Assembly: GCA_023645945.1 (NCBI GenBank)
Contig: JALAIB010000058.1
Location: forward strand, 1 to 38,099
Source of the DNA: Diploschistes diacapsis
Taxonomy: Eukaryota
Direction: 5' to 3'
Length of the DNA: 38,099 nucleotides
Below are positions 4,850-37,985 of the stretch, piece by piece. A program made the position numbers and the translations under genes. Positions within the stretch are counted from its first letter, which is position 1, and each line of letters begins with the position of its first letter. Below the pieces are notes generated by a model. The model made no database searches and was not told where the DNA came from. It saw nothing but the letters and a program-made list of their open reading frames with translations.

Positions 4850-5530
4850 CTCATGGAGTTTACGACCAAGCTTTTCATGTAGGCTCGCAGCGTGGACTGG
4901 TAACCGAAAATGAGCCCCTCGAGATGTACAATCCTGCGATACACGGAGTTATATACCATGGCCTAGGAGATGAAGACGAGCCTATTGAGATGTACAATCC
5001 TGCGATGCACGGAGTCATTTACGATGGCCTAGGGGATGGAGACGAGCCCATCGAGATGTACAATCCTGCGATGCACGGAGTTATTCACCATAGCCTAGGG
5101 GATGAAGACGAGCCCATAGAGGTATACGACCCTGCCATCCACGGAAACTATCAACATTTAGCAGAAGGCGGCGAAGAAACCCTGGAAGCCAATGACCCGG
5201 CAGTACATAGAGTGCTACACCAAGCGACAGAAGACGCTGACCTCGCCCCAGAACACCTAGTATCAGACAGTAACGAGCCTCTGGAGGAAGCTCATGACCC
5301 TACCATACACGACGCTCTTGCAGACAACGCCGAAGTTGGCGACGACTTTGCCGTCATGTATGACCCGGCGATACACGGAGCCCTGGAACAGCTAGCGGAA
5401 GGTCAAGAAGCAGACGGTAACGAGGCTACCGAAGTCTATGATCCTGCAATTCATGGACCCCTCGATCTCGCTGCAGCAGACGATGAATCGCCCGCCGAAG
5501 GCTATGACCTCGCCGATCATGGAAACACCG
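4850..5530 (+). repeat. Coding 66-nt (22-aa) tandem repeat with core Y[DN]PA[IM]HG; 4 tight copies plus about 6 degenerate ones
   Basis: GAGATGTACAATCCTGCGAT at 4921, 4987 and 5053, and GAGGTATACGACCCTGCCAT at 5119. Other copies: YDQAFHVG, NDPAVH, HDPTIH, YDPAIHG (x2), YDLADHG. Confidence 0.92.
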
Positions 5531-10486: not shown

Positions 10487-11311
10487 CTACTCCAACCTCA
10501 CGACCCCGTCGCGCTTCCACCCCATCCACACCCCAGCGAAAACAAGCTTGATCGCGCCGGCGCTCCACAACGCCGCACTAATGTCGCCCTCCCGCGTCAG
10601 CGCCCCGCCGACGATCGCGCCCAGCAGCAACGCCACCATGCTCGCCGCGCGCCTGTTCCGCTTCACGTTGCCGGCGACGGTGGCGGGCACGAAGAGCTTC
10701 TCGTCCACGACGAGGTCGCAGTAGGCGCTCGTCAGCACCACGCTCGTGACCTCGGCGCAGCCCAGCACGCGCGAGACGAAGATCTGCGCGCCGGCCTGCG
10801 CGCTCAGCAGCGCGAGCGGGAGCAGCACGATGAAGTCGGACGGCAGCGTCCCGCCGGCGGACCGCGGCACGGCCCCGACCGTCGTGAGCAGCGCCGAGGC
10901 GGAGATCAGCAGGGCCTGCACCAGCGTCGCGCCCACGATGCTGGAGCGCTGGAGCGCGCCCGCGTGGCGCATCAGCCGCGACGACACGTAGCAGCCCAGA
11001 AGGAAGGAGAGGATGGCGGTGCCGGACTTGGCCCAGCGCCACGGCTGCGAGCTGGGTTGGTGCGTGGCGCCCAGGCCGAGGTAGATTGTGTTGCCTGCGA
11101 AGGGGGAGATACCGGTCTGCATGCTCACGAAGCAGCTCCAGACGCTGAACACGGCGGAGTCCAGGAGGCCCGTGACGAAGCAGTTGAGGATCAGCATGCC
11201 GTCGCCCCATGCCGTGCTAAGTTCCTGAGCCAGATGCTCGCGGGCTTTGGACAGCCAGTGGCTCCGGGCTTTCGATCCATTGATCTGCGGGACAAGAGCA
11301 CCGTTGGACAT
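10487..11311 (-). CDS. DUF1275/YoaK-family multi-pass membrane protein, 274 aa, intronless
   Basis: Motifs CFVTGLLDSAVF, FVSMQTG..GNTIYLGLG, LLSAQAGAQ..SRVLG..EVTSVVLTSAYCDL..D, RNRR..LLGAIVGG; several hydrophobic segments; strong GC3 bias. Confidence 0.9.
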   Translation of the reverse strand: MSNGALVPQINGSKARSHWLSKAREHLAQELSTAWGDGMLILNCFVTGLLDSAVFSVWSCFVSMQTGISPFAGNTIYLGLGATHQPSSQPWRWAKSGTAILSFLLGCYVSSRLMRHAGALQRSSIVGATLVQALLISASALLTTVGAVPRSAGGTLPSDFIVLLPLALLSAQAGAQIFVSRVLGCAEVTSVVLTSAYCDLVVDEKLFVPATVAGNVKRNRRAASMVALLLGAIVGGALTREGDISAALWSAGAIKLVFAGVWMGWKRDGVVRLE

Positions 11312-11449
11312 GGCGGCGCCGTGTATGCGAAAACTCTATGTGTGGGCACCGATATTTACAGGAACAATTACATCAGCAGAAAATCGTCCTCCTCTCCCAT
11401 TACCGGTGTGGCTTTGCGACGGAGATAAGCCAATAAACCCGAAGGCTTG

Positions 11450-19300: not shown

Positions 19301-21625
19301 TCGCTTCTTCTGGGGTGAGATACCCTGCAGCGCTGGCTGCTACTATTTCCCCAGAGGAATGTCCTACCACGCCTTGACTGCTAATACCCCACGAACGCAA
19401 TATCTCAACTTGAACAAGCTGCAGAGCCGTGATCAGGGAGCTGAGAGAATTCAGGCTGACGAAGATGAGCACTGTCGCGAGCTTCAAGAAGTTCATCTAC
19501 GCTTCTGTTAGGGCAGCTTATGCCTGACGTCGTGGAAGCATACCAATTAAAGTCCATTGGGGGTGGGCTTGACAAGCCTTGTAATGCTTCATCCAAACGC
19601 GCAAGCAATTGCCTAGCTTCTGAAAAATGCATGATCAAGTCTTTCCCCATCTGAGACCACTGACCGCCCTGGCCGCTGAAGATGAAACCAATATGTAGGT
19701 CATGCGTTTTCCTCTTCCCATAGACTATATTAGATTTAGAGATTTCCATTCTATTCGTAACAGTATAAGCCCTGTAAAAGTGATGTGTCTTTCGTTCGGA
19801 TAAGGTGTATGCAAGATCCCGAAGAGCGACATCTGTGATAGGATTTACAGAGTAATTTCCTTAGCCGCTTAATGTTCTCCTGTAAAGCTGTTTGGTCATT
19901 CCCGGAGAGAAGCGGTAGATACGGTCAAGAAGGATGAGTGCTATTAGACTCTGCAAGTACATCAGCCTCGTCAGAACAGCGCGAAAATGCATGGTGGAGC
20001 GGGATGTCGGGGAGAAATGGGTCGGCTGCTTCCACAATTACAAGCGCATTAGACCCCCCATATCCGAAAGAGTTCACGCTTGCACGTCGTTTCCTTGATT
20101 TGGGCCATGGGATTGCTTCTTTGACCACTCGCAACCGTAACGCCTTGAAATTAACTTGGATCTTGTCAGACTCTCTGCCACAGGAAGAAACACAAGAAGG
20201 GGCTTACTCTTAGGATTGGGGGTGACAAAGGTTGGGTTCCCAGGGATTCTTGCTTTTTCGACTGCAAGAATAGCTTTCAGCAAGCCTGAAAGCCTGCACG
20301 CAGGCTCTGAATGTCCAATATTGCTCTTGATCTAATGGAGTTCATGAGTTTATTGATCCAGAGAACAAATAATATGGGCAAGCTTACGGATCCGATCGGC
20401 GAAGGGTCGGCTTCAGCCCTAGTAGGAGCGAAAACTGCCGCGACTCCTAATGCCCTAGCTTAAGCATTACTGGTAGCTCTCGCATTAAGGAACCGTTTTC
20501 TCTTACTCATTAGGATCTCCCGCTTGTGTGCCAGTGCCATGGCATTCTAGGAATCCAGTATCCCCAAAATTATTGATACCTGCATTAGCATACGCTTTCC
20601 GAACTGCAGCAGACTGCGCCTCCGAACTGGGATTTGCGATTCCCGATTCCCGGGGTCCATCCATTGCTGTTTGAGGCTGTCCCTAAGATAACAGCTCGAA
20701 TGCGATCACCGTTACTTATAGCACTGTCCAATCGTTTCAGAACTACAGCGTTCACTGCTTCGCTTTTGATTATCCGTCTGCCTTGGCATCAAACGCATGG
20801 CATTTGCCAGACTTCGAAGAGGCCCCCTGAATCGCCATTGCGTCGGTGTTGTGCTCTGGACTAAGTACATATTGCACCCAGCCACGATTGCTCCGTCAAT
20901 GTCTCCAAGGTGAAGATATTTACAAGCCACATCGATGCCAACCAGACTTCCAGAGGATATGGTGTCTATAGGAATGCTGTCATCTTCAGTGAGCCCCGGT
21001 CATGTGATCCCTGGACCTAAATATTCCAGGTTCAAGAAGAGCATTTTTGAACTCACCTATGGCCTTTGATATTCAGAAAATGGCTTATGCGATTGCTTAG
21101 CATGGAACGTCCTACACCAATTGTGACCAACGGAGCCCTATCCTCAGGATCTGTAGCTTGCATGTCTCCATAACCTAGACGTTTAAACATAATCAGATTC
21201 AGTATTGTGATATAGCTGCATTGAGACATACCACCTGCGTAGGAACCGACAAAGCATCCCATTTGCTTCCCAACCAGACTATCCAAAGGCAATCCTGCAC
21301 TCTCTAGGCTCTCGTAGATGACTTCAAGGAGTTGGCGCTGCTGCGGATCCATTGCTGTCGCCTCTGGCCTCGAAATCCCGAAGAATTGAGCATTGAAATC
21401 TCAAGGATCATAATCGATGAACATCCCCCCCTGGCGAGCGCATTGTTCGCGGCTTGGAAGATCCATCATAATGACCTCTGAGGTTAAACCGGCTCTTGGG
21501 AGGCACAGTGCTTGCAATCTCAAGTTGTCGAGAAAACTCCAGAATTGTTCCAATGAATTGCATCCACCAGGCAGTCGGCAGGCGAGGCCAACCACTGCGA
21601 TAGGAGTCTGCTTTGATGGAGCCAT
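13394..21625 (-). pseudogene. Highly reducing iterative type I PKS (KS-AT-DH-degenerate MT region-ER-KR-ACP) with many frameshifts
   Basis: [138 protein letters not shown] degenerate ACP lies at about 13450-13610. The 3' end is uncertain (13443 or 13394). Confidence 0.93.
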
Positions 21626-22073
21626 TTAGCAGAAAATAGCATTCGTAAATATTGAGGCCGCGGCTACATCGAGTTCTGAAAACTTGTTAACCTTAAGACA
21701 AGAGTCTTTCATTCTGATTCTTCAGCGCTTCTACTGAATTCGGTCGAGATATCTCTGTCAGGTTAATGCAAGGCGCAAACCGGCCTCCACAAAGTGGTGC
21801 AGGCTAGTTGAATACAAACAACCCATACCCTGACAAAGGCACCTCTGCACATAGTGGTATCTATCCGCAACTAGATCGTCTCCGCTATGACAGTAATAGC
21901 ATCTCACCGCGGAATTACTTACCGCAGTAAGGTCACACTTCTCAGAACTCGCCATATGTAATGCAAGCCACGGTGAGCAGGTAGATAGGGCCTGCTCCGT
22001 GCCCCATGCACGTCCATATTGAGGAAAAGGCCGTCGAAGCCCCGATAGAACGGTCTCGGAATTCACTAATGAC

Positions 22074-23729
22074 TTAAGCCCCTGCCTTCCTTGCCACCTT
22101 TCCCAGGCGCTCCGCTACTGATTCCAGAAAGTGCCCTGTACCCCAACGCAACACATTATCCACCGCTACAATAAATTCCACTACGCTCTTCATCAACATT
22201 CCATTACAAATCTCCAAAAGCGTCTGATTGAACTTGCGCACACCATCTTCAATGTGGGTGTAGTGGGCCCAGAGCTCGTGGTAAGGGCCTTCGGTACAGA
22301 CGGAGAAGAAGAGTGGGGGCGAAGTGTCTACGGGCGCGGGCGAGACATCGGAACCCGTTGCGCGCTTGACCAGCTCATTCAGGCAAAGCTGTATCTTTAG
22401 CCCAGAAGCCCCGGAAACTGCAGCCTGGTTCTCCGCTTCGAAGACTTGTTTGCCGGTCGAGTAGGCCTTGCCCTCGACAACAGCAAATGGGAAGACGAGA
22501 TCTGACGCGCGTTGCGTGGGTACCGCGATCAGCAGTGGTTCCTGGGGCCCGCGACTCTCACGAGGCATTATAGTGTTCTGGAGCTGTTCGAGGAATCGCT
22601 TGGCCCTGGTGTTGTCCAGAATTTGCGACGAGAGAGCGGATATGAGAGTCGTGTCTTGTGTACCCATTGATATATCGGGACGGGGTGTTTTGATTGGGGA
22701 GGGCTCTTTGGCGTTATCCAGGAGGGGGCCGGGAGCAGGAGGAGGCATGGTGTCTGATTCCAGTGGCCTTTTTTCTGGCGTATAATCTGATGCGTCGGTC
22801 CTTGAAGGTTGCGGGGAGATGGGTGTCTGGGCGGCATACTGCTGCTGGCGTTTCCGTGGTGGAGCCGAGGCGTCGTCGACCCCTTGTTGCTCGTCACCGG
22901 CCATGGCGTTGAAATCTGCCAGGAAACTCAAATTCAAATCCGACCGCTGGATCGTTGGCTTGAGCTCCTCTCGCCAATCGGCTTTTGCACGGAGACAGAG
23001 GCTTCTGTGGTCCATAGCCCGGAGCGCAATTAGGAATAGTTCAATGAAATCATCTTCGCCAACCGCAGCTTTGACCGCTTTCTTGCAACCATCGTAGAGT
23101 TCTTGGGTTATGACGCGGAGTTCAGCGCGGCGCTTTTTGGAAACTTTAGCTTTGATAATGGCGTTGATAGCGGCTTGGATGTTGACAGGCGGATCGGTGT
23201 GGATGTAAACCTCGGCGGCTGCAAGATGCTTGTAGCGGTAGTAGGCAGTGGAGTTAGAAGAACGTTGGGATCGGACTGTATCCGCTTCTGATGACGCGGC
23301 CATGGAACGCCGCGATGAGGACCGTTTCAGAGCCAGAACATTGTTGGCTGCGGAGTCCATCTCTTCCCCGTTGAATATTTGCAAGTTCTTCTCAGAGAGC
23401 TCGAGCTTGGGTGGGTGCCTTCGGGGCTGTTTTGCGGGGCGCTCGCCTTTTGTCTCGTCGGCTTCAGCTTTAGAGTCTTCTTGTGGGCGCCTCCGTTTGG
23501 TGCGGGCCCGCTGAGAAACGAGTGTAGGACGTGTGGGTGATGCTTGGACAGGCGAGAGCTGGGGAAGGTGGGAAACGAGCGGCTCGCTAGAATCTTTTGC
23601 TCGCACTCGCGCGCTCCTTCGAGGGCCAGCGGCCTGTCTGCGCCTTATGATGGGGGTCGCGTGCTGAGAGCCTGGTGCGAGTTGCCGCCTGTTCTTCTTG
23701 ACGGGAGCAGAATTGGCTCGCGGAGCCAT
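22074..23729 (-). CDS. 551-aa protein with a basic disordered N-terminus and a PD-(D/E)xK nuclease-like C-terminal domain (resembles the DUF7924 family)
   Basis: Intact intronless ORF. KTPRPDISMG ... FPFAVVEGKAYSTG..FEAENQAAVSGA ... FFSVCTEGPYHELWAHY. NLS-like KRRRP and RKRQQ. Family name is from recollection. Confidence 0.75.
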   Translation of the reverse strand: MAPRANSAPVKKNRRQLAPGSQHATPIIRRRQAAGPRRSARVRAKDSSEPLVSHLPQLSPVQASPTRPTLVSQRARTKRRRPQEDSKAEADETKGERPAKQPRRHPPKLELSEKNLQIFNGEEMDSAANNVLALKRSSSRRSMAASSEADTVRSQRSSNSTAYYRYKHLAAAEVYIHTDPPVNIQAAINAIIKAKVSKKRRAELRVITQELYDGCKKAVKAAVGEDDFIELFLIALRAMDHRSLCLRAKADWREELKPTIQRSDLNLSFLADFNAMAGDEQQGVDDASAPPRKRQQQYAAQTPISPQPSRTDASDYTPEKRPLESDTMPPPAPGPLLDNAKEPSPIKTPRPDISMGTQDTTLISALSSQILDNTRAKRFLEQLQNTIMPRESRGPQEPLLIAVPTQRASDLVFPFAVVEGKAYSTGKQVFEAENQAAVSGASGLKIQLCLNELVKRATGSDVSPAPVDTSPPLFFSVCTEGPYHELWAHYTHIEDGVRKFNQTLLEICNGMLMKSVVEFIVAVDNVLRWGTGHFLESVAERLGKVARKAGA

Positions 23730-24315
23730 AGGACGTAGAAAGAGAGGCGTAACGCGTAGTGCAGTGTTGGATATATGATGACGGGATGATCGCAGGATGG
23801 TTGCGGGAGTGTCGGCGCGAAGCCGGATGGGTGGTTTGGTGTTGGCAGGCAGGTTTTGAACGTCAAAGCTTGGCGCTGGCGAGGGACAGTCGGAAACGGA
23901 TTAGGCGAGCAGCGGGCGCTACCCGTCGCGCCCGGGACGAGCAATGCCGCGAACCTTGAAGTCTGCGACTTCTCTTCTGATTGGCAGTGGGAACAAGCTT
24001 CGCTCTAGGAGACATCTCAGCTGAGGCTTTCACGCAACAACGGTGTTGCCGGGCAGAGCAGTCTCATGCCTTGGCGCTTCTAGAGTATTCTACGCTGTAC
24101 ATTTTGAGCGCAGTGGGCCCGATTCTAACCCCCGAGCAGGTTTTGCTGTGTAGATTGGCTTCGAACACCAGGCACGAAATTTGCCAACAGTTAGAAATGT
24201 ATCCTTTCTCCTGGATTCGGTTTTGCGGGGGAACAACCACCTTCCTCTTTTATGGAATCATTTGCCAAGCTTGTGGCTGTTCAAGACTGTGGCTGACGCT
24301 AGGCCGAACTGCACC

Positions 24316-24574
24316 ATGCGTGGCCTTGACTGGCAGCGAGCGAACACCAGATCGCATCTATGATAAGATCGCACACTGGTTTGAGGTGCTTGGAGAGGAA
24401 CTAGATAATCCGGTTATTGTACCGAAGAAGATCAACATTATGAACGAAACGGGAGTCATGTTAAGCATGCTCGGCTCCCTCAAAGTCCTGGTAAGTGAAG
24501 ATGACACGCGAACTTACAGAGGCGCAGGTATTAAGCGGGAAATGGTGACTGCGATTGAGTGCAGTAGCGGGTGA
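24316..24574 (+). mobile_element. pogo/Fot1-type DDE transposase internal fragment
   Basis: RGLDWQR then, frameshifted, IYDKIAHWFEVLGEEL...NIMNETGVMLSMLGSLKVLV..D.RTYRGAGIKREMVTAIEC. This matches the Fot1/pogo YNMDETG region with the first catalytic D changed to N. No TIRs seen. Confidence 0.85.
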
Positions 24575-24642
24575 TTTCAAGGCTCAGTTCTGGAATGTCT
24601 GCGGTAGCCCATGAAAACTCACGTCTCAAAAACGATGTAATG

Positions 24643-25708
24643 TTATATGACTTCCATGATCCAGACGTCTCCTAGCCGGCTGTTGTCTTCGGCAAGGCCA
24701 CCATGCACAACTATGGCCTCTTTGCCCTTCACATCCTTCGCAACATCTGCATCGAACCAGCCTCTTGGCTGAGGAGCATCACCATCTGTCTTTATCTCTG
24801 ACCAATCCCCACCTGTAATGTCGTACGCCCACACATTTCCCAGCATCTTCCCGGCGCCCGAATGTCCAAGTGAGCTGGGGTCATGCTCGCCAAAGAGCGT
24901 TATGAGATATTTCTTGCTGTCAACCTCCAGAGGAAGCAATGCACTCACACTGCGAGCTTCTGGCCCACTCTTGCTATCCGCAGGATATGTGATAGTGGAC
25001 CATGCTTCACTGCCCAAGTCGAACACATCCACATGGCCACCCTGTTCTTTCTGCCCATCGAAGCCGTTCATACGGTACAGCTTACCGGCAGAGTACGTGA
25101 TCGATGTGCCACCTCGAGGTGGGTCTGGAGCAGCCGGAAGACTCCTCCACATCTTGGCGTTGACGTCGAAGGCCCACAGATCAGAAAGACGGCCTTGTTG
25201 GGGACAACCAGCATGGAGAAAAAGTGTGTCACTACCATCGCTTGTCATCGTGTGGTAGCTTCGAGCTGCTGGATACGGAGCTGTGGCGTCCGCAGGGGTA
25301 ATCAATTTCCACTGAGAGGTAGTTGGATTGAAGCTCCACAAGCTTCCTTTCTCTTCAATCGGAGCCATCGCTACGCCGCCGCGGCCGGAATAATAAAATA
25401 TTATGTTGTTGAGCACGATGCTAGCTGAGCCGACGCGAGGGGAAGGAGTATTGCTGGAGGTGGAGATTGTTTGGACAGTGGCCGACGCTGGCAGATATTA
25501 ACATCACGTGTGGCTTATCTGAAGTTCGCTGCTCATACACACTCTTCGAAATCTCAACTACATCGAATTGATTGTCAACCGGCTGCCGGGGCTGGAGTTC
25601 GCCACCAAAAATCCAGGCTTGGTTCTTGACGACAGATAGGGTATGGGAGGATCGCTGAAGACGCGCCGAAGACGCTAGGCGCGTCCACTTTACAGTAATG
25701 GCCGACAT
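24643..25708 (-). CDS. Kelch-repeat beta-propeller resembling nitrile-specifier proteins; exons 25708-25543 and 25487-24643
   Basis: A phase-1 intron at 25488-25542 (GTGTGT..CAG) joins LQRSSH..WIFGGELQPRQPVD to PSPRVG..YSGRGG, ARSYH, PRGG, ARSV, PRGWF, VHGG..RLGDVW: six kelch blades. Confidence 0.9.
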
Positions 25709-25896
25709 TTCATGCCAAATGACTGTACCTAAGAAAAGGCTTGGAACCGCAAGCAAGGTATATATATTATATATACACGGCACGAATTGGGCAGTGGCAC
25801 CGCTAGCTCCACGTTCAATTTCGGTCGCGGGCTGATTCCGCTGAAGAGCAGATTACTTAACACATGTCTAGTCAAACACCGCCCTGGACATGACAG
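25709..25896. promoter_or_regulatory. Compact bidirectional promoter between the kelch and ferroportin genes
   Basis: 188 bp separate the divergent ATGs, with a TA-rich tract TATATATTATATATA at about 25759-25775. Confidence 0.6.
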
Positions 25897-27633
25897 ATGA
25901 GCGACGATATTGCTGTTGCACCTTCTGGCATGGAAACGATCGGTCTTTCTACTATCAACGTAATCTCCAATGAAGGCTCAGAGACTACACGAGACTTACA
26001 AATCATTCGGAACGGGAGAAGCAGCACAAGTAGCGCCACAGCCGGAGAGCGTGCCAAGCCTAGCAGCAGGCCGGCCATCGCAGCGCCCGCTCATCATCAA
26101 GCCAGCACTGCTGACGACACATATCACAACAATGATTCTGTGCTCACAACGGGGTCCGTCGATATCCAGGAGCTCTCGGAGCGACCGATAGCCTCATCTT
26201 CTCACCCAATATCGAGACATATTACAAGTCGATTGTTCATCTCTCACTTCTTGTCGACATGGAACTCGCGGCTGTTCGAAATGGGCGCTGTGCTCTTCAT
26301 CGCCGCCATTTTCCCCGGGACGTTACTGCCAATGTCTGTGTATGCACTTGTGCGTAGCGGAGCCGCTATTATGCTATCGCCCGCCTTAGGGTCTTGGATT
26401 GATAAAGGCGATAGACTGAACGTTGTCAGAGTTTCTATTGTGGGCCAACGGCTGGCAGTTGGGACATCGTGCGGTATATTCTGGATCTTATACGAGCGAA
26501 AGGAGCTCGGAACCAAGCTGAGGATCGGCCTCTTTGTCGTGAACATGCTTCTGGCATGTATAGAGAAGCTGTGTTCAGTCATGAATCTGGTCTCCGTGGA
26601 AAGGGATTGGGTTGTGGTCATTTCACAAGACGACGATACAGCTCGGAGAATACTTAACGCTCGCATGCGCCGCATCGACCTGTTTTGCAAATTGTCTGGT
26701 CCACTCGCTATCTCCTTGATTGACGGAGCATCTACAATCGTCGCTATCATGGTTACTCTGGCGATGAACTGTACGTCAGTCCTAATCGAATACTTTACGA
26801 TTGCGGCAGTTTTCAGAATAGTTCCGGCTCTTCAACGAACGACGACTGAGAACAGCCTTACTGCTGCCGAAGACGACCCAGAGCGACTACCATCGGCGAA
26901 TGAAACCAATCGACTTTCACTGCGTGGGATTATCGACTTCGCACAGTCAGCCGCCTCCAACCTCCTTCCGCTCAACTCGATACCTTACTACTTCCAACAC
27001 CCATCATGTCTCCCCTCAATCTCCTTGTCTCTGCTCTACTTTACGGTCCTCTCCTTCTCCGGCCAAATGATCACCTTTCTCCTCGCCATTGGCTATACGT
27101 CTTTCGCTGTGGGTGCTGCCCGAGCGGTTAGCACCATTTTCGAACTCTCCGTAACCTGGATCGCTCCCAAAGTACAAGAACACATCGGTGCTGTGCGAGG
27201 CGGTATCTGGTTTTTGACATGGCAGATGATATGGCTTGCTGGGGGACTGTCCTGGTTCTTTGCCAGTGGTGAAAGCCTTACTGTAAATAAGTTCTTCGCG
27301 GCCAGCGGGCTCGTCGGCGCCGTCATATTGAGCCGTGTGGGTCTGTGGGGTTTTGATCTTTGCGCTCAGAGCATTATACAAGAGGAGGTAAATGGGCAGA
27401 GTCGGGGCGCTTTTTCCACCGTGGAGGCATCTTTCCAGAACCTTTTTGAGCTCCTTTCGTACGTAACAACGATCATCTTTTCGAAGGTAGATCAGTTTCA
27501 GTGGCCTGCTGTCATCAGCACCATTGCGGTATACGTCGCTGGAGGAACTTATATGGTATTTGTGAGGAGAAGGCGCGGGCACCTGGTACATATGCCTAGC
27601 TGTATTAAGCCGCGGCTGGAAGACAACCGCTAG
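25897..27633 (+). CDS. Ferroportin (SLC40/IREG) family MFS transporter, 578 aa, intronless
   Basis: RLFISHFLSTWNSRLFE, ERDWVVVI, NARMRRIDLFCKL.GP, LLYFTVLSFSGQM, SRVGLWGFDL..Q.IIQEEV...RG.FS.VE.S.QN.FELL; many hydrophobic segments. Confidence 0.93.
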   Translation: MSDDIAVAPSGMETIGLSTINVISNEGSETTRDLQIIRNGRSSTSSATAGERAKPSSRPAIAAPAHHQASTADDTYHNNDSVLTTGSVDIQELSERPIASSSHPISRHITSRLFISHFLSTWNSRLFEMGAVLFIAAIFPGTLLPMSVYALVRSGAAIMLSPALGSWIDKGDRLNVVRVSIVGQRLAVGTSCGIFWILYERKELGTKLRIGLFVVNMLLACIEKLCSVMNLVSVERDWVVVISQDDDTARRILNARMRRIDLFCKLSGPLAISLIDGASTIVAIMVTLAMNCTSVLIEYFTIAAVFRIVPALQRTTTENSLTAAEDDPERLPSANETNRLSLRGIIDFAQSAASNLLPLNSIPYYFQHPSCLPSISLSLLYFTVLSFSGQMITFLLAIGYTSFAVGAARAVSTIFELSVTWIAPKVQEHIGAVRGGIWFLTWQMIWLAGGLSWFFASGESLTVNKFFAASGLVGAVILSRVGLWGFDLCAQSIIQEEVNGQSRGAFSTVEASFQNLFELLSYVTTIIFSKVDQFQWPAVISTIAVYVAGGTYMVFVRRRRGHLVHMPSCIKPRLEDNR

Positions 27634-28227
27634 TAACGAGCGTTGCCATGATTCTATGGGATAACAGCGCAAGGACGAAGCATGAACCGGAGAGTCGCTT
27701 AGGTGCTGCAGCAGAGCCATCTCGCTGCCGTAGTGACGGTCGCAAGTTGTACAGTCGAATGGGTCTCGTCTGTGCTGCTGCAGGCTTTCGTCGCTATGGA
27801 CAGATCGATCGCAGAGAACACAACGGGAGCTTATAGTGTCAAAGTCTTCATACGACTATTGATTCTTTTTTCAGAAAGTGTTCAGAAGTAATGATAGTCG
27901 GAAGCGGTGAGTCGAGCAAAGAAGGACACTTGGCTATAACCGCAGTACTTTCTCACAGCAACCCGAGTCCTTGTGGAGAAACAGCTGAAGAACAACGGCA
28001 CACTGAGTATAACTTCATATGCTCGCGAGGGCGAGATTTGATACCCCTAGCTAACGGATTCATCCCGGCACGGTGGGTTTCTCTCCACCCCGAGACGCAC
28101 GTTAGGAGATTGCATGCATTTAATGCAGATTTTGGAAGTCAGATTCAAAGCTCTGCCAACTGGCCACAACTGCACCTACCACATCTATACTTCAGACTTG
28201 CTCGCTTATAGATGTGTGTAAGACTCC

Positions 28228-29670
28228 CTATCCGAGGTGCTCTTGCATGGAGGTGCAAGCTAGCTCCGATTTTACCTGATCCAGAGCTGTGAAAATCTTG
28301 TTCATTTCTATACAGTATTTGTCTGCATTGCTCTTTAACTCCTCAGCTATTAGCTTCCACTTACTAATATGCTTCTCGAGTTTTCTATTGTCCATCTGCA
28401 GCTGCTGGATAGTGATTTTCAATTCACTAGCCGTCAATGCAGCTGCTCGTCTCCTTTCCGATTGTGGCAACCCGATATTCACATTTACCAATTTCGCGAG
28501 TTACTCTGACGTTGTCCTGGTGTAGGTCGTTAATCTTTGCCACGAAACTGACTTCCTGCTTGTGAAATTCCAGAAACTTATCGAGCAGTCAGCCAAATAT
28601 CTGATTGACGAAGATGAGAAGCGCGTACAGATTCTTCCCCATTCTGCGGCTGGATTTCCGATTGTGATCAGGACATGGGCTACCTTGCTTTCACCCATTT
28701 CCATGGATCGGTTGTACCTGTCTTCGAAATGCCAGAAATGTTCTTGCAGGTGCTCTTTCCAGCTCTGTTTAACGAGGAACTGATGGAAACGTTTCGTTGG
28801 TGAGAGCTTCAAATCGAAGAGACAAAAGAGACACTGCCCAGCAGCAACAAAAGTCCGACGGAAGACAAATGAATTGCATTAAACTGGGAACGTCTCGAGG
28901 TTAATAAAATGACGTTGACAGTAGATACTTAAACCATCCGGTCCCACTAGTGATCTATTCGTCGTACTGAAAACAGAACTCGGCAAAGCCGTATTTCCTT
29001 TCAAGGTCGCCCTTATGGCAACGGTAAATATGTTCCCACCTCGCCCATACTGATGCTGTAGAATCGAAGGGTGGTCAGCCAGTCCGCAACAACTGAGCAT
29101 TTAGGAAATTGGAAAGGAGAAGCAGACGAACCGATCTATATCCCTTGCACATTAGGGTATAGAGTAACGACCGTTTATAAGCCGTATACTTGAACGATAG
29201 GTTACCCGCGGGTTTTTTTTATATAATGTGATTATATCCTGAAGTGCGCTGCGGCTTTGTATACTGCGGAAGGGAACGTTGAAAAAAAAATAACGATGTT
29301 AGCCTGTTACGTAACGGATTTAAACGACGAATTCGGTTAAAATAGTTTAATAAATTTACGATTTAAAATGGTTTATTTTTAGTGATAAAGTAATTTTACG
29401 TAATTGAATCTGTTGCTATTTATTGAATTCCTCGGATACGAGCTGGCGTTTTTATTTAATATAATTTTTTTCCGTCTGAGTTCGAGCTGGTTAAGCTTTA
29501 TTTTTTAACTTAATATTTTAAAGTTTTTTTTCTTTAATATTTCGATCTTTTTGTTGATAGAGACGAAGTCGGTATAATTATTTAAATTAACGTCGATTTT
29601 TACGGATAACGAAATATAATAATTAAAAATAATCTTAGAACGATAACCCGCGAAATCTTCTAAAATAAAC
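28228..29670 (-). pseudogene. 3' half of a probable Starship captain (DUF3435 tyrosine recombinase) gene, RIP-mutated and 5'-truncated
   Basis: Minus-strand translation across stops and frameshifts: KRQLVSEEFNK*QQIQLRKIT...YFNRIRRLNPLRNRLTSLF..NVPFRSIQSRSALQDIITLY..NPRVTYRSS..NGRYSIP*C. After an intron at 29056-29131 (GTTCGT..GCTGAC..CAG) comes RWEHIYRCHK...YGFAEFCF..E*...CQRH..FPV*CNSFVFRRTFVAAGQCLFCL...RFHQFL....WKEHL..H. This Cys/His-rich tail matches captain C-termini as I recall them. The catalytic domain itself is not visible. Confidence 0.7.
29160..29670. other. Heavily RIP-mutated tract
   Basis: Very AT-rich and TpA-rich, depleted in CpA/TpG but retaining CpG. Stops fall where W/Q codons are expected. 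Sharp right boundary near 29670. Confidence 0.85.
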
Positions 29671-30153
29671 TGGCAGGTTCGACCGGATCACCCTGATTTC
29701 TAACACCACCAAACAAAGTCTTTCAGAATCACGAGGCGCAGTGCTGAACTCCGCCCGGCATGATTGACGCCTACCTTCACTGCCTTGCCTCGCGCAAGGC
29801 ACTCGGCCACAAAATCAACTGGCTTTTTCGCAGGGAGTTAGCCTTGTATATAGAGGCATCTTCGATAAAAAAAAAACAAGGCTGACCAACCAGGGCAACT
29901 TGTCCAACGGTGAATCGCGGCGTACTGGTGCCTAACAATAATGGCAGGAAAAACATCGCAAGGGTCCGGATTCCTTGCGTTGACTGGTGCTGCATTTTAT
30001 AAATGATGGCGCAAATGCCATTCCTGTGTACATGCGTCTGGAATTTGCCACTACCTTGTGGTTCATATTGGTGCGTCCCACTCAAGCGCCCCTCCCCTCC
30101 AAGCGTCAGAAAAGCTGCGAACAACCGACTGCCTGCTCACCTCGCGCTAGCAA

Positions 30154-31656
30154 ATGACTGAAAATTCCAATCCTGGCCCAGCAAATCTTGGCTCTTTGGG
30201 GGTGCAGACTCTACTCGGCACTGCGCCCATCATTAATGTGGTCGCAGAATGGGCTTCTCTCATTCCCCTCGCCCTGCACCTCACCAACAGGCGCCAGGAC
30301 TATTCTTTGATGGGCGAACTTGCCTTGACGGGCCAGATGTCGGTCGGGCTGTTTGAAGAGTTAGGTTTCGCCAAGGGAATGGCTCGGCTGCTCCAGGAGG
30401 GATCGGATTTCCTCGATCATGCGAGTATTCGCGGTAATATGAGCCGTGAGGTATGGGATGTCAATTGGGGCAGCACCTTCCCCTGCTCGAACGGGGCCGC
30501 GTGCGCCATTGTGACCGCGTATGCTCTGCGCAAAGTGCCGGAAGTGGTCAACATAAGTGATCGCATTCATGACGAAGAGGCGGCTAGGTCGCTGGAAGCC
30601 GGAATGGCAATCGCGACTCCGTTGAGCGAGAGCTCTGCCTCGACGTCTTTGGAGAAAAGAAAAATTGAAGCTTTGGAGATAACGCTCCACGCGAGGCACG
30701 TACGGAAGTCACGAATTCCATCCAGTGGATCTCATCCAGAGATGCCACCGTCAGATAATTCCGCTCTTTCCAACAATCGCGCCGCTCGCAACCCGCACCG
30801 CCGGTACCAGCGGTTACACATTCTTGACTTCCAGCGAGCCACTCCTGACGAGCATAAGATGCCAAAGAAGACCTTCTCTTTCTTGGCACACTTGGATCCT
30901 TTTTTCTCCATCTTTATTCTTGGTATTGCTGGGCTTCTTGTCCTCTTCGGTCTATATGGCACTGCGCTTGGCATACTCGCAGGATTAATCTCCAAAGCTA
31001 TTGTCCTTTGCAGCGTTCATCTCGAGAGGCCTCCGGGCTATCTCGTTAATAACGAAGTGAGCGACGCATGCATGTTAGTAGCGACTCACCGAAATGCGAC
31101 AACTTGGTACTTGCACACTGGCGACCGAGGGATCGTAGACCATCTTCTCAACAAGCCCATGGTTGAACTTCGTTATCTCCGCACTATCTTTATCCCATGG
31201 TTCAGGTTGGGGCATATTGCGCAGCTGACTGCCATGACGTTTGTCGCCGCACAGAAAGGGTGGGACGGGGTCGCTATGGTGGTGCTTATGCTGTGCACTC
31301 GCTTGGTGAAATGGTGCTATGGGGGCGACTATCTTGCACGGCGCTGGCTAGCCCAAGAAGGGATTACCGTTCGAGTCAAAAGCTTTGACTTTGAAGGGCG
31401 AACTGCCATGATCATTGCTATTCAGGCTCTGAGCGAGAGTAATGTCACAAGATGGATGGACGATATTATCGTCCCGCATCCTCGTCGCGATGCTCTGCTG
31501 GTGGCTCTCGGAATGAGCCCTAGCGAAAATCCTGCACCTGGTCCCAAGCCGCAACTGAGTGCTTTCGATCACCATTGGGTTGAACTTCACCTAAAAAGGG
31601 TATCAGCAGCAGCAACAATTATGCTACAGGAACTCGCTAAGATGGTTGAGGATTGA
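30154..31656 (+). CDS. Uncharacterised 500-aa membrane protein with about 4 TM segments in two hairpins
   Basis: Intact intronless ORF in good start context (GCAAATG). Hydrophobic hairpins FFSIFILGIAGLLVLFGLYGTALGILAGLISKAIVLC and IAQLTAMTFVAAQKGWDGVAMVVLMLC flank a polar loop ERPPGYLVNNE..MLVATH.NA..W.L..GDRGIVD.LLNKPM. Confidence 0.85.
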   Translation: MTENSNPGPANLGSLGVQTLLGTAPIINVVAEWASLIPLALHLTNRRQDYSLMGELALTGQMSVGLFEELGFAKGMARLLQEGSDFLDHASIRGNMSREVWDVNWGSTFPCSNGAACAIVTAYALRKVPEVVNISDRIHDEEAARSLEAGMAIATPLSESSASTSLEKRKIEALEITLHARHVRKSRIPSSGSHPEMPPSDNSALSNNRAARNPHRRYQRLHILDFQRATPDEHKMPKKTFSFLAHLDPFFSIFILGIAGLLVLFGLYGTALGILAGLISKAIVLCSVHLERPPGYLVNNEVSDACMLVATHRNATTWYLHTGDRGIVDHLLNKPMVELRYLRTIFIPWFRLGHIAQLTAMTFVAAQKGWDGVAMVVLMLCTRLVKWCYGGDYLARRWLAQEGITVRVKSFDFEGRTAMIIAIQALSESNVTRWMDDIIVPHPRRDALLVALGMSPSENPAPGPKPQLSAFDHHWVELHLKRVSAAATIMLQELAKMVED

Positions 31657-31815
31657 TTCATCCAGGAACAGCACGTCAATACTACTGATTTAGCTCTTGA
31701 TAGAAGATCCTGTTTGTGTAAAATGGATGGTAAATGCTGGAATTTATTTTCCCTTTACCTGGACAAAATTGGCTATTTAGTTGAAGTGCATCACGCTGTG
31801 GGAATAACGTTGCTC

Positions 31816-34223
31816 TCAGGCAATAAGCACATCTTCGGTGAACTTGAAGGGAGGGGAGCGGAATCCTTTTATCCAATTCAAAAACGCCTTGTCATCTCCA
31901 TCTTCTGCATTTTCGGTTCTTCTTGAGTAAAGATTCTCTCTTCCAAGCACCGAGAACAGCAATCATTGTGCCTCGATACTCGCTCATTTAGAGCCGCTCT
32001 CCGCCGTAGCTTGGATGAACTAGTGCCACTCGACTGTGTTCCTGTACGTACAGTAGTGGAATGGTTTGTAGAGTAGAAACACATTGCTGGTCTGTGCAGG
32101 CCTCGGAATGCGACTTGTTGGCTCCTACCGGGTTTCAGCTTGGGGACTATAAATTCGTAGAGCATCCAGGGTGCCAACAGGCCCTTGGAAGTGATTCGGC
32201 CGACCTCGACCGTGTGGAAGTTGGGTTGTGATAGGATAGCAAGCTCTGATTAGCTCCCAACAGAGGAATTGGATGACAATAGGGGGATGCAGGCGCCCAG
32301 GATGGACCTGGCAGATCCAAACGTGGAGCACTGGACGGTAGAAACCCGGTGAATGCGAATCTCTGGTGCCTCCAAAATTGTTTCTGCGGTATCGGGCGAC
32401 TTCTCTCCCATAAGAAGACTTCCAAATCACTACATCATCTCCTGGCCTACTTGCCGGTCTATGGCTGAGAAAGCTGCCCGCTCGCTCCAGATCAAGGTAT
32501 TCTATATATGTGATGCCTCTTGCCTCATCGGCTTGTGTCAATTTTCCGGAGACAGTCTGCGGCAGGGCGTGAGGAACGGTCAAAATTAGGTTAGCAAGGT
32601 CGACTGCTCCATTCTGCAGGATATCCTTTACCAGCTCCTCGAAATGAATGGTAGCATTATTTTTGCAAAGGATTTGTATTTGATTTCGTCCTCGCATCGA
32701 TTCGAGGTATGTCCATGCTCTAACGTTTTGATCGCACACCAAGAACATTGCTAGAATCGTTTCCTTTGTCTGAATACTCAGGTCTGATATGCTGATATCC
32801 ATCAGATCACGATCACAGATTAAGGTTACTTTACTAGCGGCCAAAGTTTGATTAATGTTGTTCATGATAGCCTGTTTTCGCAGCTGGTGCTCCTCAGGAA
32901 TGCAGGGGGCATCCCACCAGTAAGAATCACGATCGGAACGTTTTGACGCCATATTGCTTGTGCAAACAACGATTGATACCACCATGAGGTCATCCTCCCT
33001 GGCCATGAGACCAGACATGCGAGATAGCCAGTGTCTTGTTGGAAGCCGTACAATACTGCAAAGGCCCTTGGCCGCTTGTCCCTTCCAAGCTAACGGCGCA
33101 AGAGCCTGATACCAAAAGGAATGAGGCTCTGTTCCAGACAAGCCTTTCGCGGGAAGTGTAATTTCGGTCATGAAGCGGATTGATCTTTTGATTATAAGAC
33201 CTATGGATCTCTGACAAGCATTCGTCTTCTGAAGATCACAAGCCATTCCGGAGCTAAGGTTGCATCTGCTAGGTTTCCCCTTCCAGACTGCCCCATACAC
33301 GGAGTGAAACCGTCCGAAATCCGTGCCCATACAGGGCTTCTGAGCCCTCAAAAGTTCGAAAGCCCAAGAGCACATATATTCGTCTTTGTCATGAAAGGCG
33401 TATCGCTTCGACGTATCGAGATGAGAAAAGCCCGGTATGACTCTTAGCGGGATTACTGAGACGCCGTAGCCCTGGTAGAAATCTCTCAGATAATTAAAAT
33501 CGTTTTCCGTGGGCCCAAAATTAAAGCATCTGGCAACGCTGCTAGGAGCACCAGAGTGCTCCTCTAATAATGAAAAAGGTAGGGCAAATCAGCTTCGTAC
33601 GCACAAGAAGTAAGTGAACAAACGATCCCAAGTAATTCTGCTGGTAGGTTGGGGTAATCTAGAATAGACTGCAAACGAACAGAACGATGATCGGTTTGTA
33701 TTAGGAGGGCACAACGAACGGCGTTGACGTTCAGTATGTTGGAAATGCGTAGATTTGGCCAGGTGCGTGCCGGTTTGCGAGATATTTTCTCCTCATGAGC
33801 CTATTTCGAATTGGAAATGTCCTTGATCAAGGTTATCTAGCAAATCCGGTAGGCTGAGCGGCTGGAGTGGCAGGCGCTGCAAGAGGTGATGGGCGCGTCG
33901 AGACATTACTAGAACTACCTTCGAAAGTAAAATGGCAGCTCACAAAGGAGGCAAGCAGTGAGTCGATATCTTGGACATGCGTCGCAGGCCTTTGAGCTCT
34001 TGCAAACAGTTGTTTACAGGGGTCCTCATATATGACGATCAGCTGTTTCCAGGTTTTATGGACAATGACCGATCCTTTTCGTTCCGCTTCGAAGCCTTCG
34101 ATCCTCATTTGAGGTAGCTTATATCCTTCAGTAAGATTAGGGATCCCCAAGCAAGAGTGAGTCCAGGACTTCTTCGACCCACTGCAGCGTGATATGAGTT
34201 GGGCCTCGCACCGGTCCCATCAT
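31816..34223 (-). pseudogene. HET-domain gene pseudogene, paralogue of 34513-37281
   Basis: YMCSWAFELLR..C.G.DF..FH; TLAISHVWSHGQGG (different frame); DSYWWDAPCIP..HQLR..AI; RAWTYLE; LSHRPASRPGDDVVIW; terminal FKFTEDVLIA*. Many frameshifts and stops. The start is approximate. Confidence 0.85.
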
Positions 34224-34512
34224 GATTCACTAACATCGAGTAAGTCTGCTATTGATCAACCACAACCTGATGGGACATGAAAATGGAGGAATGAATTCGA
34301 AACTTCAAATCCACAAATTGCTTATCATGGCCAGAACGCTGGATTCCGACGGGCAATTCATCAAACCAAAAGCGAACAATAAGCCACCTCGCCTTCGCTG
34401 GCTGCCTGGCAAGGCTCTATCTCTCATAAATTGGACGCTGACCTTCACGATATTGTTAGATAAAACAGTTTGTGAAGTTGCTGTTCTACTGAGCTCCTGC
34501 TGGTTCAAGATC

Positions 34513-37281
34513 CTACACGATTAGGAATTTAAACACTTTCCTCCATTCCGGCAACGGCTCTACATCGTCCCACTGATAGACGCCCCTCCATTCCCATCCC
34601 TTGGCTTCAATATTTTTTTCCCATCGTATCCAAGGCGGCCCGCTCCGATCGTCTTTGCAAACGTACGCTTCAGTTACTGTTCCTTTCGCGTCGTTCGTGC
34701 CGCACACGACAACGGACGTCCGTCTTGCTCTGCCACCAACTTCTTGCCACCAGCGGCCGTCATCATTGGAGCCTCCATTGTACGTTGGCTCGTAGATAGG
34801 GCATAAAACCGCGCCCCATCGATATCCTTGCCAATACCGTTCCCGAATAAACGTTAAATTGCGGAAGCGACGCCGGTCAAGCGAACTCCCAGTTTCCATA
34901 TTGTCGAATTTCCATAGCCACCAGTCGGCAACAAGACCATCCGGTGTTACACGTCCGTAGTCCGCACCGTCGTCGCCGCTGAGACTGGGGCTGATCGACT
35001 GGACGGAAGAGATGAATGTCGGTGTGGAAGGGGCCCAGTGCAAATACGGGACGTTCAGCCGTGGTGCAGTAGAAACTAGGTAGCCTGTTCTGATCGACAA
35101 ACCATTGGAGACAATCTGACCATTTTCTGTAGACTTCTGGAGAATTGGTCCCTGCATGCTTTTCCACAAGTCTTCTGCAGTGTGGTATACAGTGTTGTCA
35201 CTAATCAGAAGGCTCCAGATAACTATGTCATCGCCGGGCCGAGAAGCCGGACGATGGTTAAGCATGGTGCTGCCAGTGTCTACCTGCATGAAGCCAGTTT
35301 CAAACCCGTCCCTTTGATCCTTTAGTCGCCTTCGCGGTTGAAGTTGTTGATCGTCAATGGAAGGTAGGAAATGAGGTGCTGTCAAGCAAAGTAAGCTTAT
35401 ATCCAATCTGCCTTCAGAACAGACTCTCCCAATGACGCCTTTCATTGGGACGACGGCGTTGCCCCCACAAAGAAGATGGATATTTTGTCTACCTCGGAAG
35501 GCCTCGAGAAAGGTCCAAGCTCGTGTGTTCCAATCGCTAACAAGTGCTGTGACCAGCAGCGTTTCGTATACAAGAAGGTCTGCTTTCAAAACATCTAATT
35601 CCATGATATCTCGATCACAAACGAGAACAATCTTCGCGTTCATGAAGGTACGGTTGATGTTTGCGATTGCGTCTGCACGTAATTGATGATCACATGGAAT
35701 GCAAGCTGTATCTATCCAATACGAGTCGCAGCCGAATGACTCTGCAATGTTGACATATCGATCATGCAGACAGCTGTTCAGACCTGTTTCTGGCCTCCCA
35801 CCTTGACCACTATGTGGAAAGTCAGCCTATTGGGAACTACTCCTGAATATCGCTCAAAAGCACTTCCGGGAAAGGCAGTCACCACTCTGGAATCAGGGCA
35901 CGTTATATTAAAATGACCAGATCCCAACAATGCGAAATTAGACTTACTGGCTCCAAACATGCGATATTGCAAGCGTGTTGGCAGACGCATTGCAATAATG
36001 TAGTGTCCCGTGATGGTAGCAGCCTACGTGCTTTAAAGAGACAGCTCGAGCCCCAGATGTGCTTCTGTAAGAATCTTCGTTCCAGAACAGCCTTCTACAA
36101 TCTTTCGGACATCCTTGATTATGTGCTGACTGTGCTTCAATCGCCATGCCCTGGAAACGTTGGCAGCTTTTAAAGCTGTCACCTTGGCAAGCTTCGGCCT
36201 TTCCTAGAAGACAACGAGCTTCACGACTACCAAAGATGCTACTATAGATTTGATGGAACATTCGAAAGTCAGCACCAATGCACACAGTATTACTTCGAAG
36301 TAGTTCAAAATTCCAGCCACACATATATTTTGGTTTTCCTATACTCGAGGTCAGTCTAGACATCTCGTGCAAGGTCGTGTCGGGCGAAGGGAAAGTATCC
36401 CTTAAGAATAGATCCCCTTTCTTATTATCGGGAGAGCCTTCGAGAACGGCAGATCGGGCAGCCAAATGGAAGTATATGAGTTGGCACCGTTGCCATGTTG
36501 TCCATAGAAATGCTCGCACGATGAACAGTCTCCAACTGGCTTTGAGCGCAGCGGCATCATGAGAAAGCTGGGAAGTTATCTCGAGGAGGGCTGCAAGAAT
36601 GCTGCTTATATCTAACAAAGATCGTCGACAGTCGTGATCCACAACGGCGGCCAAAACAATCCTAAGAACAGTGTCGTTTACATATGTCGTAACTTGCAGC
36701 TCATTCCAAAGACAATTACCCTTAGCAGCTAGGTTCGTGAGACACGAAGCCCGATAACCTCTGGGGGCATCTGCCGGCGTATCAAGCAACGCCGGTGGAT
36801 ACGCGGGCATTCGCCCCAGGAGTTCGGCAGCCTGCTGAACGAAATTTTCGGCTTGTTCCAAAGTCTCGAACTTGAATCGAAATACTGACGAGAGATCTGC
36901 GTCCAAACGAGTGACCGACATTGGTGTGGGTTTGCCGAATCCGGAGAGCTTCTTACATATGCTAACGGCGCGTGCTTTTGCATCCTTATTCGTAAAGCAA
37001 CGTATTCCTTCGCCGCAGGCGCCTGCGCCATCTCTGACAACCTCGCAATCGAAATAACTGGCGTCTATCTCGCACCGGATCGTTGGGGGTTCATAGACAA
37101 CATCGCTATAAGACCGTGCATTGGGGTTGTTTCTGTAGGCATAGGAGAATCTTTCATTCTGGAGAATCGAGCGGAGTCTCTTAAGAGTAAAGGTGTTAGG
37201 TCCTTGAGATAGCAAGTTACTGCAAGCATGTGCATTCGTCATCGGTAGAAAGAAGTGAAGCTCGAGGTTTTGACTGTGCAT
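34513..37281 (-). CDS. Intact HET-domain protein with a Cys-rich N-terminal region; exons 37281-35948 and 35809-34513
   Basis: Intron 35810-35947 (GTAAGT..GCTGAC..TAG) restores TLAISHVWSHGQGGRPETGLNSCLH...DSYWIDTACIP..HQLRADAIANINRTFMNAKIVLVCD...DWNTRAWTFLE, the typical HET motifs. Alternative ATG at 37242. Confidence 0.9.
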
Positions 37282-37414
37282 TGCCGAAGAAGGCGGGTAA
37301 AAAAGGACTGGCACAGCCCTCTAATAAAATAATCATGGCTCTATAACTTCCTCTAAGGAATCACGATAAATATGTAAATTATTATGGGGATTGAGTATGA
37401 ATTAAAGGGGTAGG

Positions 37415-37845
37415 TACAGTCCGGTGCCAAAAATAGTTAGTTAGGTCCTCCCAATTCTCACCAAAATCGATTAATTTTATACCCAAATATTTTTCTCAGC
37501 AATGTACCAAATCGAAAAATTTAAAATTTTATAAAGAAGGTTATATATACAACAGATTTTTTCGAACTTTTGGGAAATTTTCCTGAATTGCCTAACATTG
37601 GGTTAAATATTTAAGAAAAATGGGATGAGGCAACTATATCCTCGCTTTTTCCATCGCATCTTACGGCCCCCAAGAAAATTATAAAAAATGAAAAAAAAAT
37701 ACTAACAAATAATTAAAGCTTTAAAAAGCTTTTGCATTTTTCTTTTCGAAATTTTTAAGAGCATTTTCGCAGAGATATAAGGGCTAGAAAAGTGACTTTT
37801 TTGAGTAAGTACATGAGGAGCAGGTGATATTGTATTAAATATTAA
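37415..37845 (+). mobile_element. AT-rich relic beginning with a Tc1/mariner-like terminal repeat
   Basis: TA|CAGTCCGGTGCCAAAAATAGTT at 37415 resembles Tc1/impala-type ends (TA target, CAGT.. start) and is followed by a RIP-like AT-rich tract. No matching opposite TIR was found. Confidence 0.5.
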
Positions 37846-37985
37846 ATGAAAATGTTCGGGGTCTTGGCATCAATCAGCCTTGGCATTAGCATCACAACCC
37901 CAGACAGAGCAATCGATTCTTTCCCACAGCTCCATCGTCAGCAAAGCAATGCGCATCCGCAGATAACACGACAAGGACAACAACG

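Follow-up and report, generated by a model that had tools for sequence, protein, structure and literature searches.

Few domains are as abundant in filamentous fungi as HET, which is sufficient to kill cells. How it kills remains unexplained, and this is called a major knowledge gap in the accessible portions of three articles (PMC10197012, PMC12881547, PMC10890737). HET is also held to be related to the TIR domain (PMC4986451, PMC10890737, accessible portions). The closest known system to the one described here is the het-B pair of Podospora anserina, in which the gene for Bh, a protein combining HET, HAD and lectin-fold domains, adjoins the gene for the PII-like protein Bp; a HET gene adjoins about 5% of the PII-like genes (accessible part of PMC10890737). 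Here, we describe a two-gene locus in contig JALAIB010000058.1 of Diploschistes diacapsis (assembly GCA_023645945.1), the whole of which (38,099 nucleotides) is hereafter referred to as the window. The locus (positions 30154 to 37281) consists of gene T, encoding a protein of 500 amino acids (aa), and the HET-like gene B, with the remains of a second HET-like gene, copy A, lying between them. On balance, we favour the reading that the window contains a single working copy of the HET-T module, a conserved and dedicated pair of genes in filamentous ascomycetes. A first-pass annotation, made from the DNA letters alone, had proposed that Cys-rich HET proteins and a membrane partner form an immunity or cell-death module here, and whether the 500-aa family and this HET subfamily remain linked across fungi was set beforehand as the deciding observation. 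Such linkage was found in 10 of 20 groups of loci and in five annotated genomes, along with fusions of the two genes.

To be specific, scanning of metagenome contigs with a T profile yielded 29 loci, which form 20 groups after merging of the near-identical ones. A member of the HET-like family adjoins the T homologue in 14 of the 29 loci, corresponding to the 10 groups mentioned above, and in one more group (L002) the divergent neighbour of T is a canonical HET gene (PF06985, E 3e-14). Locus L001 shows a marginal match to the HET-like N-terminal region at the contig end (E 9e-4). Among the eight groups without a HET neighbour, seven extend for less than 2 kb to one side or to both, and in the sole group seen on both sides (L025/L028/L029), T carries two to three in-frame stop codons. 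A HET neighbour is thus found in 11 of the 12 evaluable T groups. The two genes are separated by 48-2746 bp and can be convergent, divergent or in tandem, and comparison of the metagenome loci revealed no third gene family common to them. The same pairing recurs in annotated genomes, with adjacent locus tags in Mycoblastus (MMC28_004531/004532), Cercophora (OQA88_1497/1498) and Phialocephala (PAC_19237/19238), adjacent accessions in Acephala (KAF8849854/55) and near-adjacent locus tags in Endocarpon (EPUS_07172/07174). These five genomes represent four classes, namely, Lecanoromycetes, Sordariomycetes, Eurotiomycetes and Leotiomycetes. Three further pairs of T and HET-like proteins come from contigs of equal size (21128, 169436 and 31084). 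For a few copies among some ten thousand genes, chance adjacency would occur about once in a thousand cases, a rough estimate rather than a computed one. Furthermore, the pairwise identities of T and HET-like proteins are correlated (r 0.69 for 15 pairs, a value reached by 5 of 5000 permutations and still including the species signal), which lends weak support to the pairing.

Three of the 255 T matches examined are fusions in which a HET-like protein is followed by T: P0291, a 973-aa protein encoded on a 3105-bp contig that leaves at most ~180 nt for anything else, P0296 (CHGG_10924 of Chaetomium globosum) and P0300 (ASPCAL00269 of Aspergillus calidoustus). The T parts of all three form one clade, fully supported (100/100) and with a long stem, which suggests a single old fusion retained in two classes. 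Physical contact between T and the HET-like protein appears most likely, given that one clade combines them in a single polypeptide. Taken together, the adjacency maintained through rearrangements, the retained fusion and the decay of T away from HET genes point to a dedicated and, most likely, interacting pair. The functional module proposed in the first-pass annotation is thus supported by linkage and fusions; its alternative suggestion, that the membrane protein could be an antidote, is disfavoured by loci in which the HET-like gene is intact and T is interrupted. In L018/L019, the HET-like open reading frame (ORF) is intact (874 aa) and an 805-bp insertion that carries direct repeats of ~100 bp at its ends (L018:10954-11759, the same in L019, compared with L008:8078) interrupts T inside the second helical hairpin, between AAQKGVDGI and SLVV. 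In L008, which is 98.5% identical to L018/L019 upstream, T is intact, and no less than 10 kb of ~20% GC sequence, without a HET-like gene, comes after it. Other loci vary in copy number: three HET-like units in tandem outnumber T by 3 to 1 in L009 (6676-16146), HET-like fragments lie on the far side of T in L023 (8367-9413), L006 has a second T copy (3847-5411) and L017 has inverted T fragments (3575-4678). The interrupted T genes of L018/L019 and this other variation argue against T being the antidote of a constitutively toxic HET protein, and they are compatible both with a sensor or anchor acting upstream of HET and with a downstream effector.

The T family is sizeable and Ascomycota-wide. 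We collected 183 T homologues, and a profile search of 1.84 billion representatives returned 401 cluster representatives at E <= 0.001; in the ESM Atlas, the relatives of T are hypothetical clusters of Ascomycota only. No Pfam family was found in 54 T members, apart from a weak EccD match in one of the 54, and no PADLOC or NCBIfam model matched T at E <= 1. A sequence-profile search of the PDB gave no meaningful relative of T, and a pattern scan of 185,579 prokaryotic species genomes gave none at all. The AlphaFold2 model of T (predicted local distance difference test score 83.7, predicted template modelling score 0.81) consists of two helical hairpins, a disordered linker at residues ~155-205 and a soluble body with a β-sheet, to which the N-terminal part, the loop between the hairpins and the C-terminal part all contribute. 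Both hairpins return to one side of the membrane in this model, which would place all soluble parts on a single face, and a mean of ~6.4 Lys/Arg residues ahead of the first helix across the family points to a cytosolic location of this face. The hairpins are predicted to insert into the membrane: the Kyte-Doolittle maximum of the first hairpin is 2.44 (residues 250-268), and the family means are 1.84 and 1.14 for the helices of the first hairpin and 1.25 and 1.68 for those of the second, with -1.54 for its turn. The description of T as an uncharacterised two-hairpin membrane protein agrees with the predicted structure and the lack of a Pfam family. Residues 291-345, modelled as β-strands and a helix sited between the hairpins, have a mean pairwise identity of 59%, and 19 of their 55 columns are at least 90% conserved. 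The NNE..H.NA..W..GDRG stretch highlighted earlier as a possible ligand site corresponds to residues 299-325 within this most conserved part, and the family core contains invariant polar residues (alignment A1). A Foldseek comparison of the full T model with the PDB, proposed as a check, matched no known fold (best E 2.6). Likewise, Foldseek against BFVD gave no convincing fold match (best E 0.71), and the best hit of a wide VIA-align search (Z 6.5) was limited to the helical hairpins, these being whole-model searches in which the soluble part was not compared alone.

Gene B is read as two exons encoding an 876-aa product (Table 1). Joining of the exons gives HVWS-H-GQGGRPE, which matches the invariant family motif SHVWSHGQGGRP, and 19 of the 444 residues of exon 1 are Cys. 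Canonical HET domains are marked by ALSYxWG-like, WIDxxCI-like and RxWTxQE-like blocks. The corresponding blocks of B, TLAISHVWS, YWIDTACIP and RAWTFLEA, are all invariant in the HET-like family, including the Glu of RAWTxLE. At E <= 0.01, the Pfam HET profile (PF06985) detects 39 of 50 family members (best E 1.1e-6), and precomputed annotation assigns PF06985 to a few homologues. The exon-2 protein of B, scanned apart from the first block in exon 1, matches with an E of 0.0075. Profile comparison by hhalign with the canonical HET of locus L002 (E 1.4e-4) aligned two motif blocks, pairing YWMDTPCIP with AWMDTCCID and RAWTFLE with RGWTLQE, and the ESM Atlas relatives of the family member P0009 are HET clusters. 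Judging from these motifs and profiles, the HET-like family is a divergent branch of HET. It shares the blocks (A)ISHVWS, YW(I/M)DT.CIP and RAWTFLE with canonical HET proteins (PF06985; HET-E/D/R, TOL, PIN-C and HET-6) and differs from them in scoring at or below the Pfam cut-off, in its own invariant insert (SHGQGGRP..G.N.CLH) and in a Cys/His-rich region preceding the HET core (C290, C326, C334, C342, H356, C360 and C364 in P0009), which may bind metal. It also differs in its conservation across classes and in lacking NACHT, WD and ankyrin domains: HET is the only domain that Pfam detects in the window proteins and the 50 family members, unlike in the HET-NACHT-WD type of fungal NOD-like receptors (NLRs), and the earlier statement that the HET-like units lack NACHT, WD, ankyrin and kinase domains holds. 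The HET core has a mean pairwise identity of 56%, and 73 of its 220 columns are conserved at 90% or more, compared with 23-36% identity for the N- and C-terminal regions. No hydrophobic segment resembling a membrane helix was seen in the HET-like protein; a PDB sequence-profile search with the family returned no TIR and nothing meaningful, and no PADLOC or NCBIfam model matched either exon of B, P0009 or P0296 at E <= 1.

Copy A is the relic of a second, full-length HET-like gene. Along the 803 positions of the family hidden Markov model (HMM), matches to copy A cover 37-114, 263-348, 430-602 and 672-702 on separate stop-to-stop frames, and the homologous pieces found by tblastn fall in frames -3, -2, -3, -2 and -1, with one in-frame stop. 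Copy A lacks an intron at the position where B has one. With 41% protein identity to B, no blastn match to it and higher similarity to other family members (51% identity to P0001), copy A is an old paralogue rather than a recent duplicate; it is now dead, the remnant of a tandem array. Accordingly, of the tandem pair of HET genes reported in the first-pass annotation, the two HET-like units stand, but one of the two is a pseudogene and B alone is intact. The accompanying details fit: the inferred 3' end of the relic lies ~163 bp from the stop codon of T, in line with the 160 bp given previously, and the Glu of RAWTxLE is retained in both copies (RAWTFLEA in B and RAWTYLES in A). Among the matches listed, HET-like proteins also occur as pairs on contigs of equal size (19828, 18034 and 9868).

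Table 1. Coordinates of the HET-T locus of D. diacapsis and of the tracts flanking it (RIP, repeat-induced point mutation).
Feature	Position in the window	Strand	Description
Gene T	30154-31656	+	Uninterrupted 500-aa ORF; uncharacterised, Ascomycota-wide family, predicted to be membrane-anchored
T, first helical hairpin (residues 237-287)	30862-31014	+	AlphaFold2 helices H237-264 and H268-287; the more hydrophobic hairpin
T, most conserved segment (residues 291-345)	31024-31188	+	RP.GYL.NNE.HDACMLVA.H.NA..W.L..GDRG..D.LLNKPM (alignment A1)
T, second helical hairpin (residues 346-389)	31189-31320	+	AlphaFold2 helices H346-367 and H370-389; conserved polar turn AAQKGWDG
HET-like copy A	~31820-34219	-	Decayed full-length relic; HMM matches and tblastn pieces in shifting frames
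Gene B, exon 2	34513-35809	-	Rest of the HET core (YWIDTACIP, DWNTRAWTFLEA) and Trp-rich C-terminal region; HMM 409-802
Gene B, intron	35810-35947	-	138 nt, GTAAGT ... CTGAC (branch site) ... CACATAG; read from the DNA sequence
Gene B, exon 1	35948-37281	-	ORF; variable N-terminal region, Cys/His-rich region and first HET block TLAISHVWS; HMM 6-407
Left AT-rich tract	29200-29680		RIP-like: GC 0.297, TpA/ApT 1.12, (CpA+TpG)/(ApC+GpT) 0.51
Right AT-rich tract	37310-37850		GC 0.307, TpA/ApT 0.90, (CpA+TpG)/(ApC+GpT) 1.38; second index fails RIP

The HET-T module could work as follows. Gene B would encode a cytosolic protein with a divergent, TIR-related HET core behind a Cys/His-rich, possibly metal-binding region, whereas T would be anchored in the membrane by its two helical hairpins, exposing its conserved soluble parts on one, probably cytosolic, face. 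The two proteins would act together, most likely touching each other. If other HET systems are a guide, the HET domain would be the death-executing or signalling part, and T its dedicated membrane-resident partner, either a sensor or anchor controlling HET or the site of HET action. Because HET domains play such roles elsewhere and the locus behaves like an accessory gene locus, the module is probably involved in regulated cell death or a non-self response at the membrane.

In this organization, HET-T resembles het-B: both involve a HET protein that is not an NLR, encoded beside a dedicated partner gene and more variable outside the HET core, and both pairs are conserved beyond the species in which het-B acts in incompatibility. 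However, T, with 500 aa, predicted membrane hairpins and no known family or fold, differs from Bp, a PII-like protein that forms a small soluble trimer; long N-terminal and Cys/His-rich sequences extend the HET-like protein; and the HET neighbour found in 11 of 12 evaluable T groups, together with the fusions, compares with ~5% of PII-like genes (PMC10890737, accessible part). What is new relative to het-B is a partner from a new family, predicted to be membrane-anchored, a far tighter linkage and the existence of fused forms. Similarity to the het-S/nwd2 and gasdermin/protease pairs lies in adjacent genes that form a functional unit conserved in many fungi (PMC10197012, accessible part), but Pfam finds no gasdermin, protease or NLR domain in T or the HET-like protein. 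Neither do the two share an amyloid-type motif, the best ungapped 12-mer scoring 31.1 compared with 30.0 +/- 2.8 for cross pairs (seven pairs). Full-text searches of the literature outside subscription journals and supplementary tables turned up no mention of 12 T or HET-like locus tags and no account of HET paired with a membrane partner.

Several observations weigh against the HET-T module as a dedicated, death-related pair. As L018/L019 and L008 demonstrate, neither gene is strictly required for the persistence of the other. An intact 824-aa HET-like gene occurs on a 6.7-Mb record that has no T anywhere, and among the matches listed for Sticta, Geoglossum and Coleophoma, T and HET-like proteins reside on different contigs, although paralogues may be hidden beyond those matches. 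The HET assignment of the window protein is itself marginal, with a Pfam score of 17 bits under the cut-off of 22.5 and an hhalign probability of only 53%. Three of the four putative transmembrane helices of T are moderately hydrophobic (family means 1.14-1.68, compared with 1.84 for the first). Finally, a HET core conserved across classes at 56% contrasts with the fast evolution of HET genes described in the accessible portion of PMC10197012, and could point to a non-immune role.

Two loci stand somewhat apart. In L002, the HET gene (5065-7041, minus strand) beside T (7466-8815) is canonical and not of the Cys-rich subfamily, and its C-terminal ORF does not match the HET-like family profile. 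The L002 T protein groups with those of Trichoderma, Stachybotrys, Apiospora, Pestalotiopsis and Penicillium, and to judge from this clade, T proteins of the L002 type may generally pair with another type of HET. Locus L030/L031 (G001:C1:6467183-6479507) carries an intact fungal-type HET-like gene in the chromosome record of an actinobacterial metagenome-assembled genome (Lapillicoccus sp.), with flanks of 25-35% GC and a Dothideomycete protein as the best match (45%); despite the bacterial label of the record, this part of it resembles fungal DNA.

Among the other explanations, the one that fares best, doubtful as it is, was the main model of the first-pass annotation and assigns to the pair the logic of bacterial Thoeris or CBASS (cyclic-oligonucleotide-based antiphage signalling system): the HET protein would make an NAD-derived signal, the T loop would sense it and the hairpins would damage the membrane. 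The architecture is compatible with this analogy, in that a protein held to be TIR-related (PMC4986451 and PMC10890737, as far as accessible) is encoded beside one that joins predicted membrane hairpins to a conserved polar soluble segment. Decay of T in the absence of a HET neighbour is what would be expected of a dedicated downstream part, and an intact HET-like gene beside an interrupted T would be harmless under such a scheme. However, the accessible portions of two reviews report no enzymatic activity of HET (PMC10197012, PMC12881547), PADLOC models of bacterial defence match neither protein, the pattern scan of prokaryotic genomes gave no T relatives, and T showed no match to a ligand-sensor fold in searches with the whole model, the soluble part not having been searched alone. 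Moreover, a design based on a diffusible signal has no need for the covalent fusion of signal maker and effector.

It is quite unlikely that the pair is instead a polymorphic allorecognition locus of the het-B type, in which a variable domain of the HET-like protein recognises allelic T and kills heterokaryotic cells. Adjacent HET and partner genes do determine incompatibility at het-B of Podospora (PMC10890737, accessible part), and the termini of the HET-like protein are far more variable than its core. Related loci also differ, with T alone by an AT-rich tract in L008 and an interrupted T beside an intact HET-like gene in L018/L019, and tandem arrays and relics recur (copy A of the window, L009 and L023). 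Yet the strong conservation of T across classes, with its invariant polar core, is more in keeping with an active part than with a polymorphic label. Such conservation is, together with that of the HET core and the single-copy state of most loci, what would be expected of a membrane-associated enzyme or signalling pair without any death or immune role, for which the HET-like fold was co-opted. We regard this as very unlikely, since the genes are patchily distributed, sometimes decayed or interrupted, arranged in tandem arrays in places and flanked by AT-rich or repeat sequence, as is typical of accessory, non-essential genes, and the blocks of death-inducing HET domains are retained. Scarcely credible is a toxin-antidote pair in which T would counteract the constitutive toxicity of the HET-like protein: although tight linkage and occasional fusion, both seen here, also occur in toxin-antidote pairs generally, the 874-aa HET-like ORF is intact beside a split T in L018/L019, a HET-like gene exists without T on the 6.7-Mb record and HET-like units exceed T by 3 to 1 in L009.

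The surroundings of the HET-T locus in the window are heterogeneous. RIP is commonly recognised by TpA/ApT above ~0.89 and (CpA+TpG)/(ApC+GpT) below ~1.03. The claim that RIP-like tracts bound the block on both sides is borne out by both indices on the left, but fails on the right with the second. Many contigs, belonging to three runs, break off or diverge at 37450-37810, where the summed depth is several-fold higher, which indicates that the right edge carries a short multi-copy element or repeat; comparison of the left and right flanks revealed no repeats common to both. Contigs from a second sample (X2) match parts of T, with 18 differences over 823 bases, and of B, with 29 over 916. Run X3 provides high-depth contigs at 22000-27939 and near 37.8 kb and low-depth ones in between (one of them, at 34541-35243, differs at 11 of 703 bases), a cover too thin to be informative on presence or absence. 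Further to the left, a gene for a DUF1275 membrane protein (10490-11335, minus strand; Pfam E 1.8e-30) lies in an island of ~72% GC, the window mean being 50%. Domains of a highly reducing polyketide synthase, namely, acyltransferase, dehydratase, sdrA-like NAD-binding and ketoreductase, are spread over several stop-to-stop frames at ~13837-19860 (minus strand), and no ketosynthase was seen among the ORFs scanned; the splitting of the frames may reflect introns or decay. The window proteins match ascomycete proteins, most of them from lichen-forming species, and the one sequencing run that contains every word sampled from the window, labelled as a lichen metagenome, may be where it comes from.

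The HET-T pair bears on the question of how HET domains act. A partner gene that stays next to HET in four classes of ascomycetes, and that one clade has fused to it, offers a concrete pair for testing the HET mechanism, and T itself represents a sizeable uncharacterised family, with several hundred cluster representatives and no Pfam family. A bolder proposal, which we consider unlikely, is that T is the missing downstream or cognate part of fungal HET/TIR-like signalling, such that an enzymatic product of HET, or contact with it, gates a membrane executioner. If this were true, HET-T would be the eukaryotic counterpart of the bacterial defence systems that combine TIR with a transmembrane effector, with the fused clade as its single-chain version.

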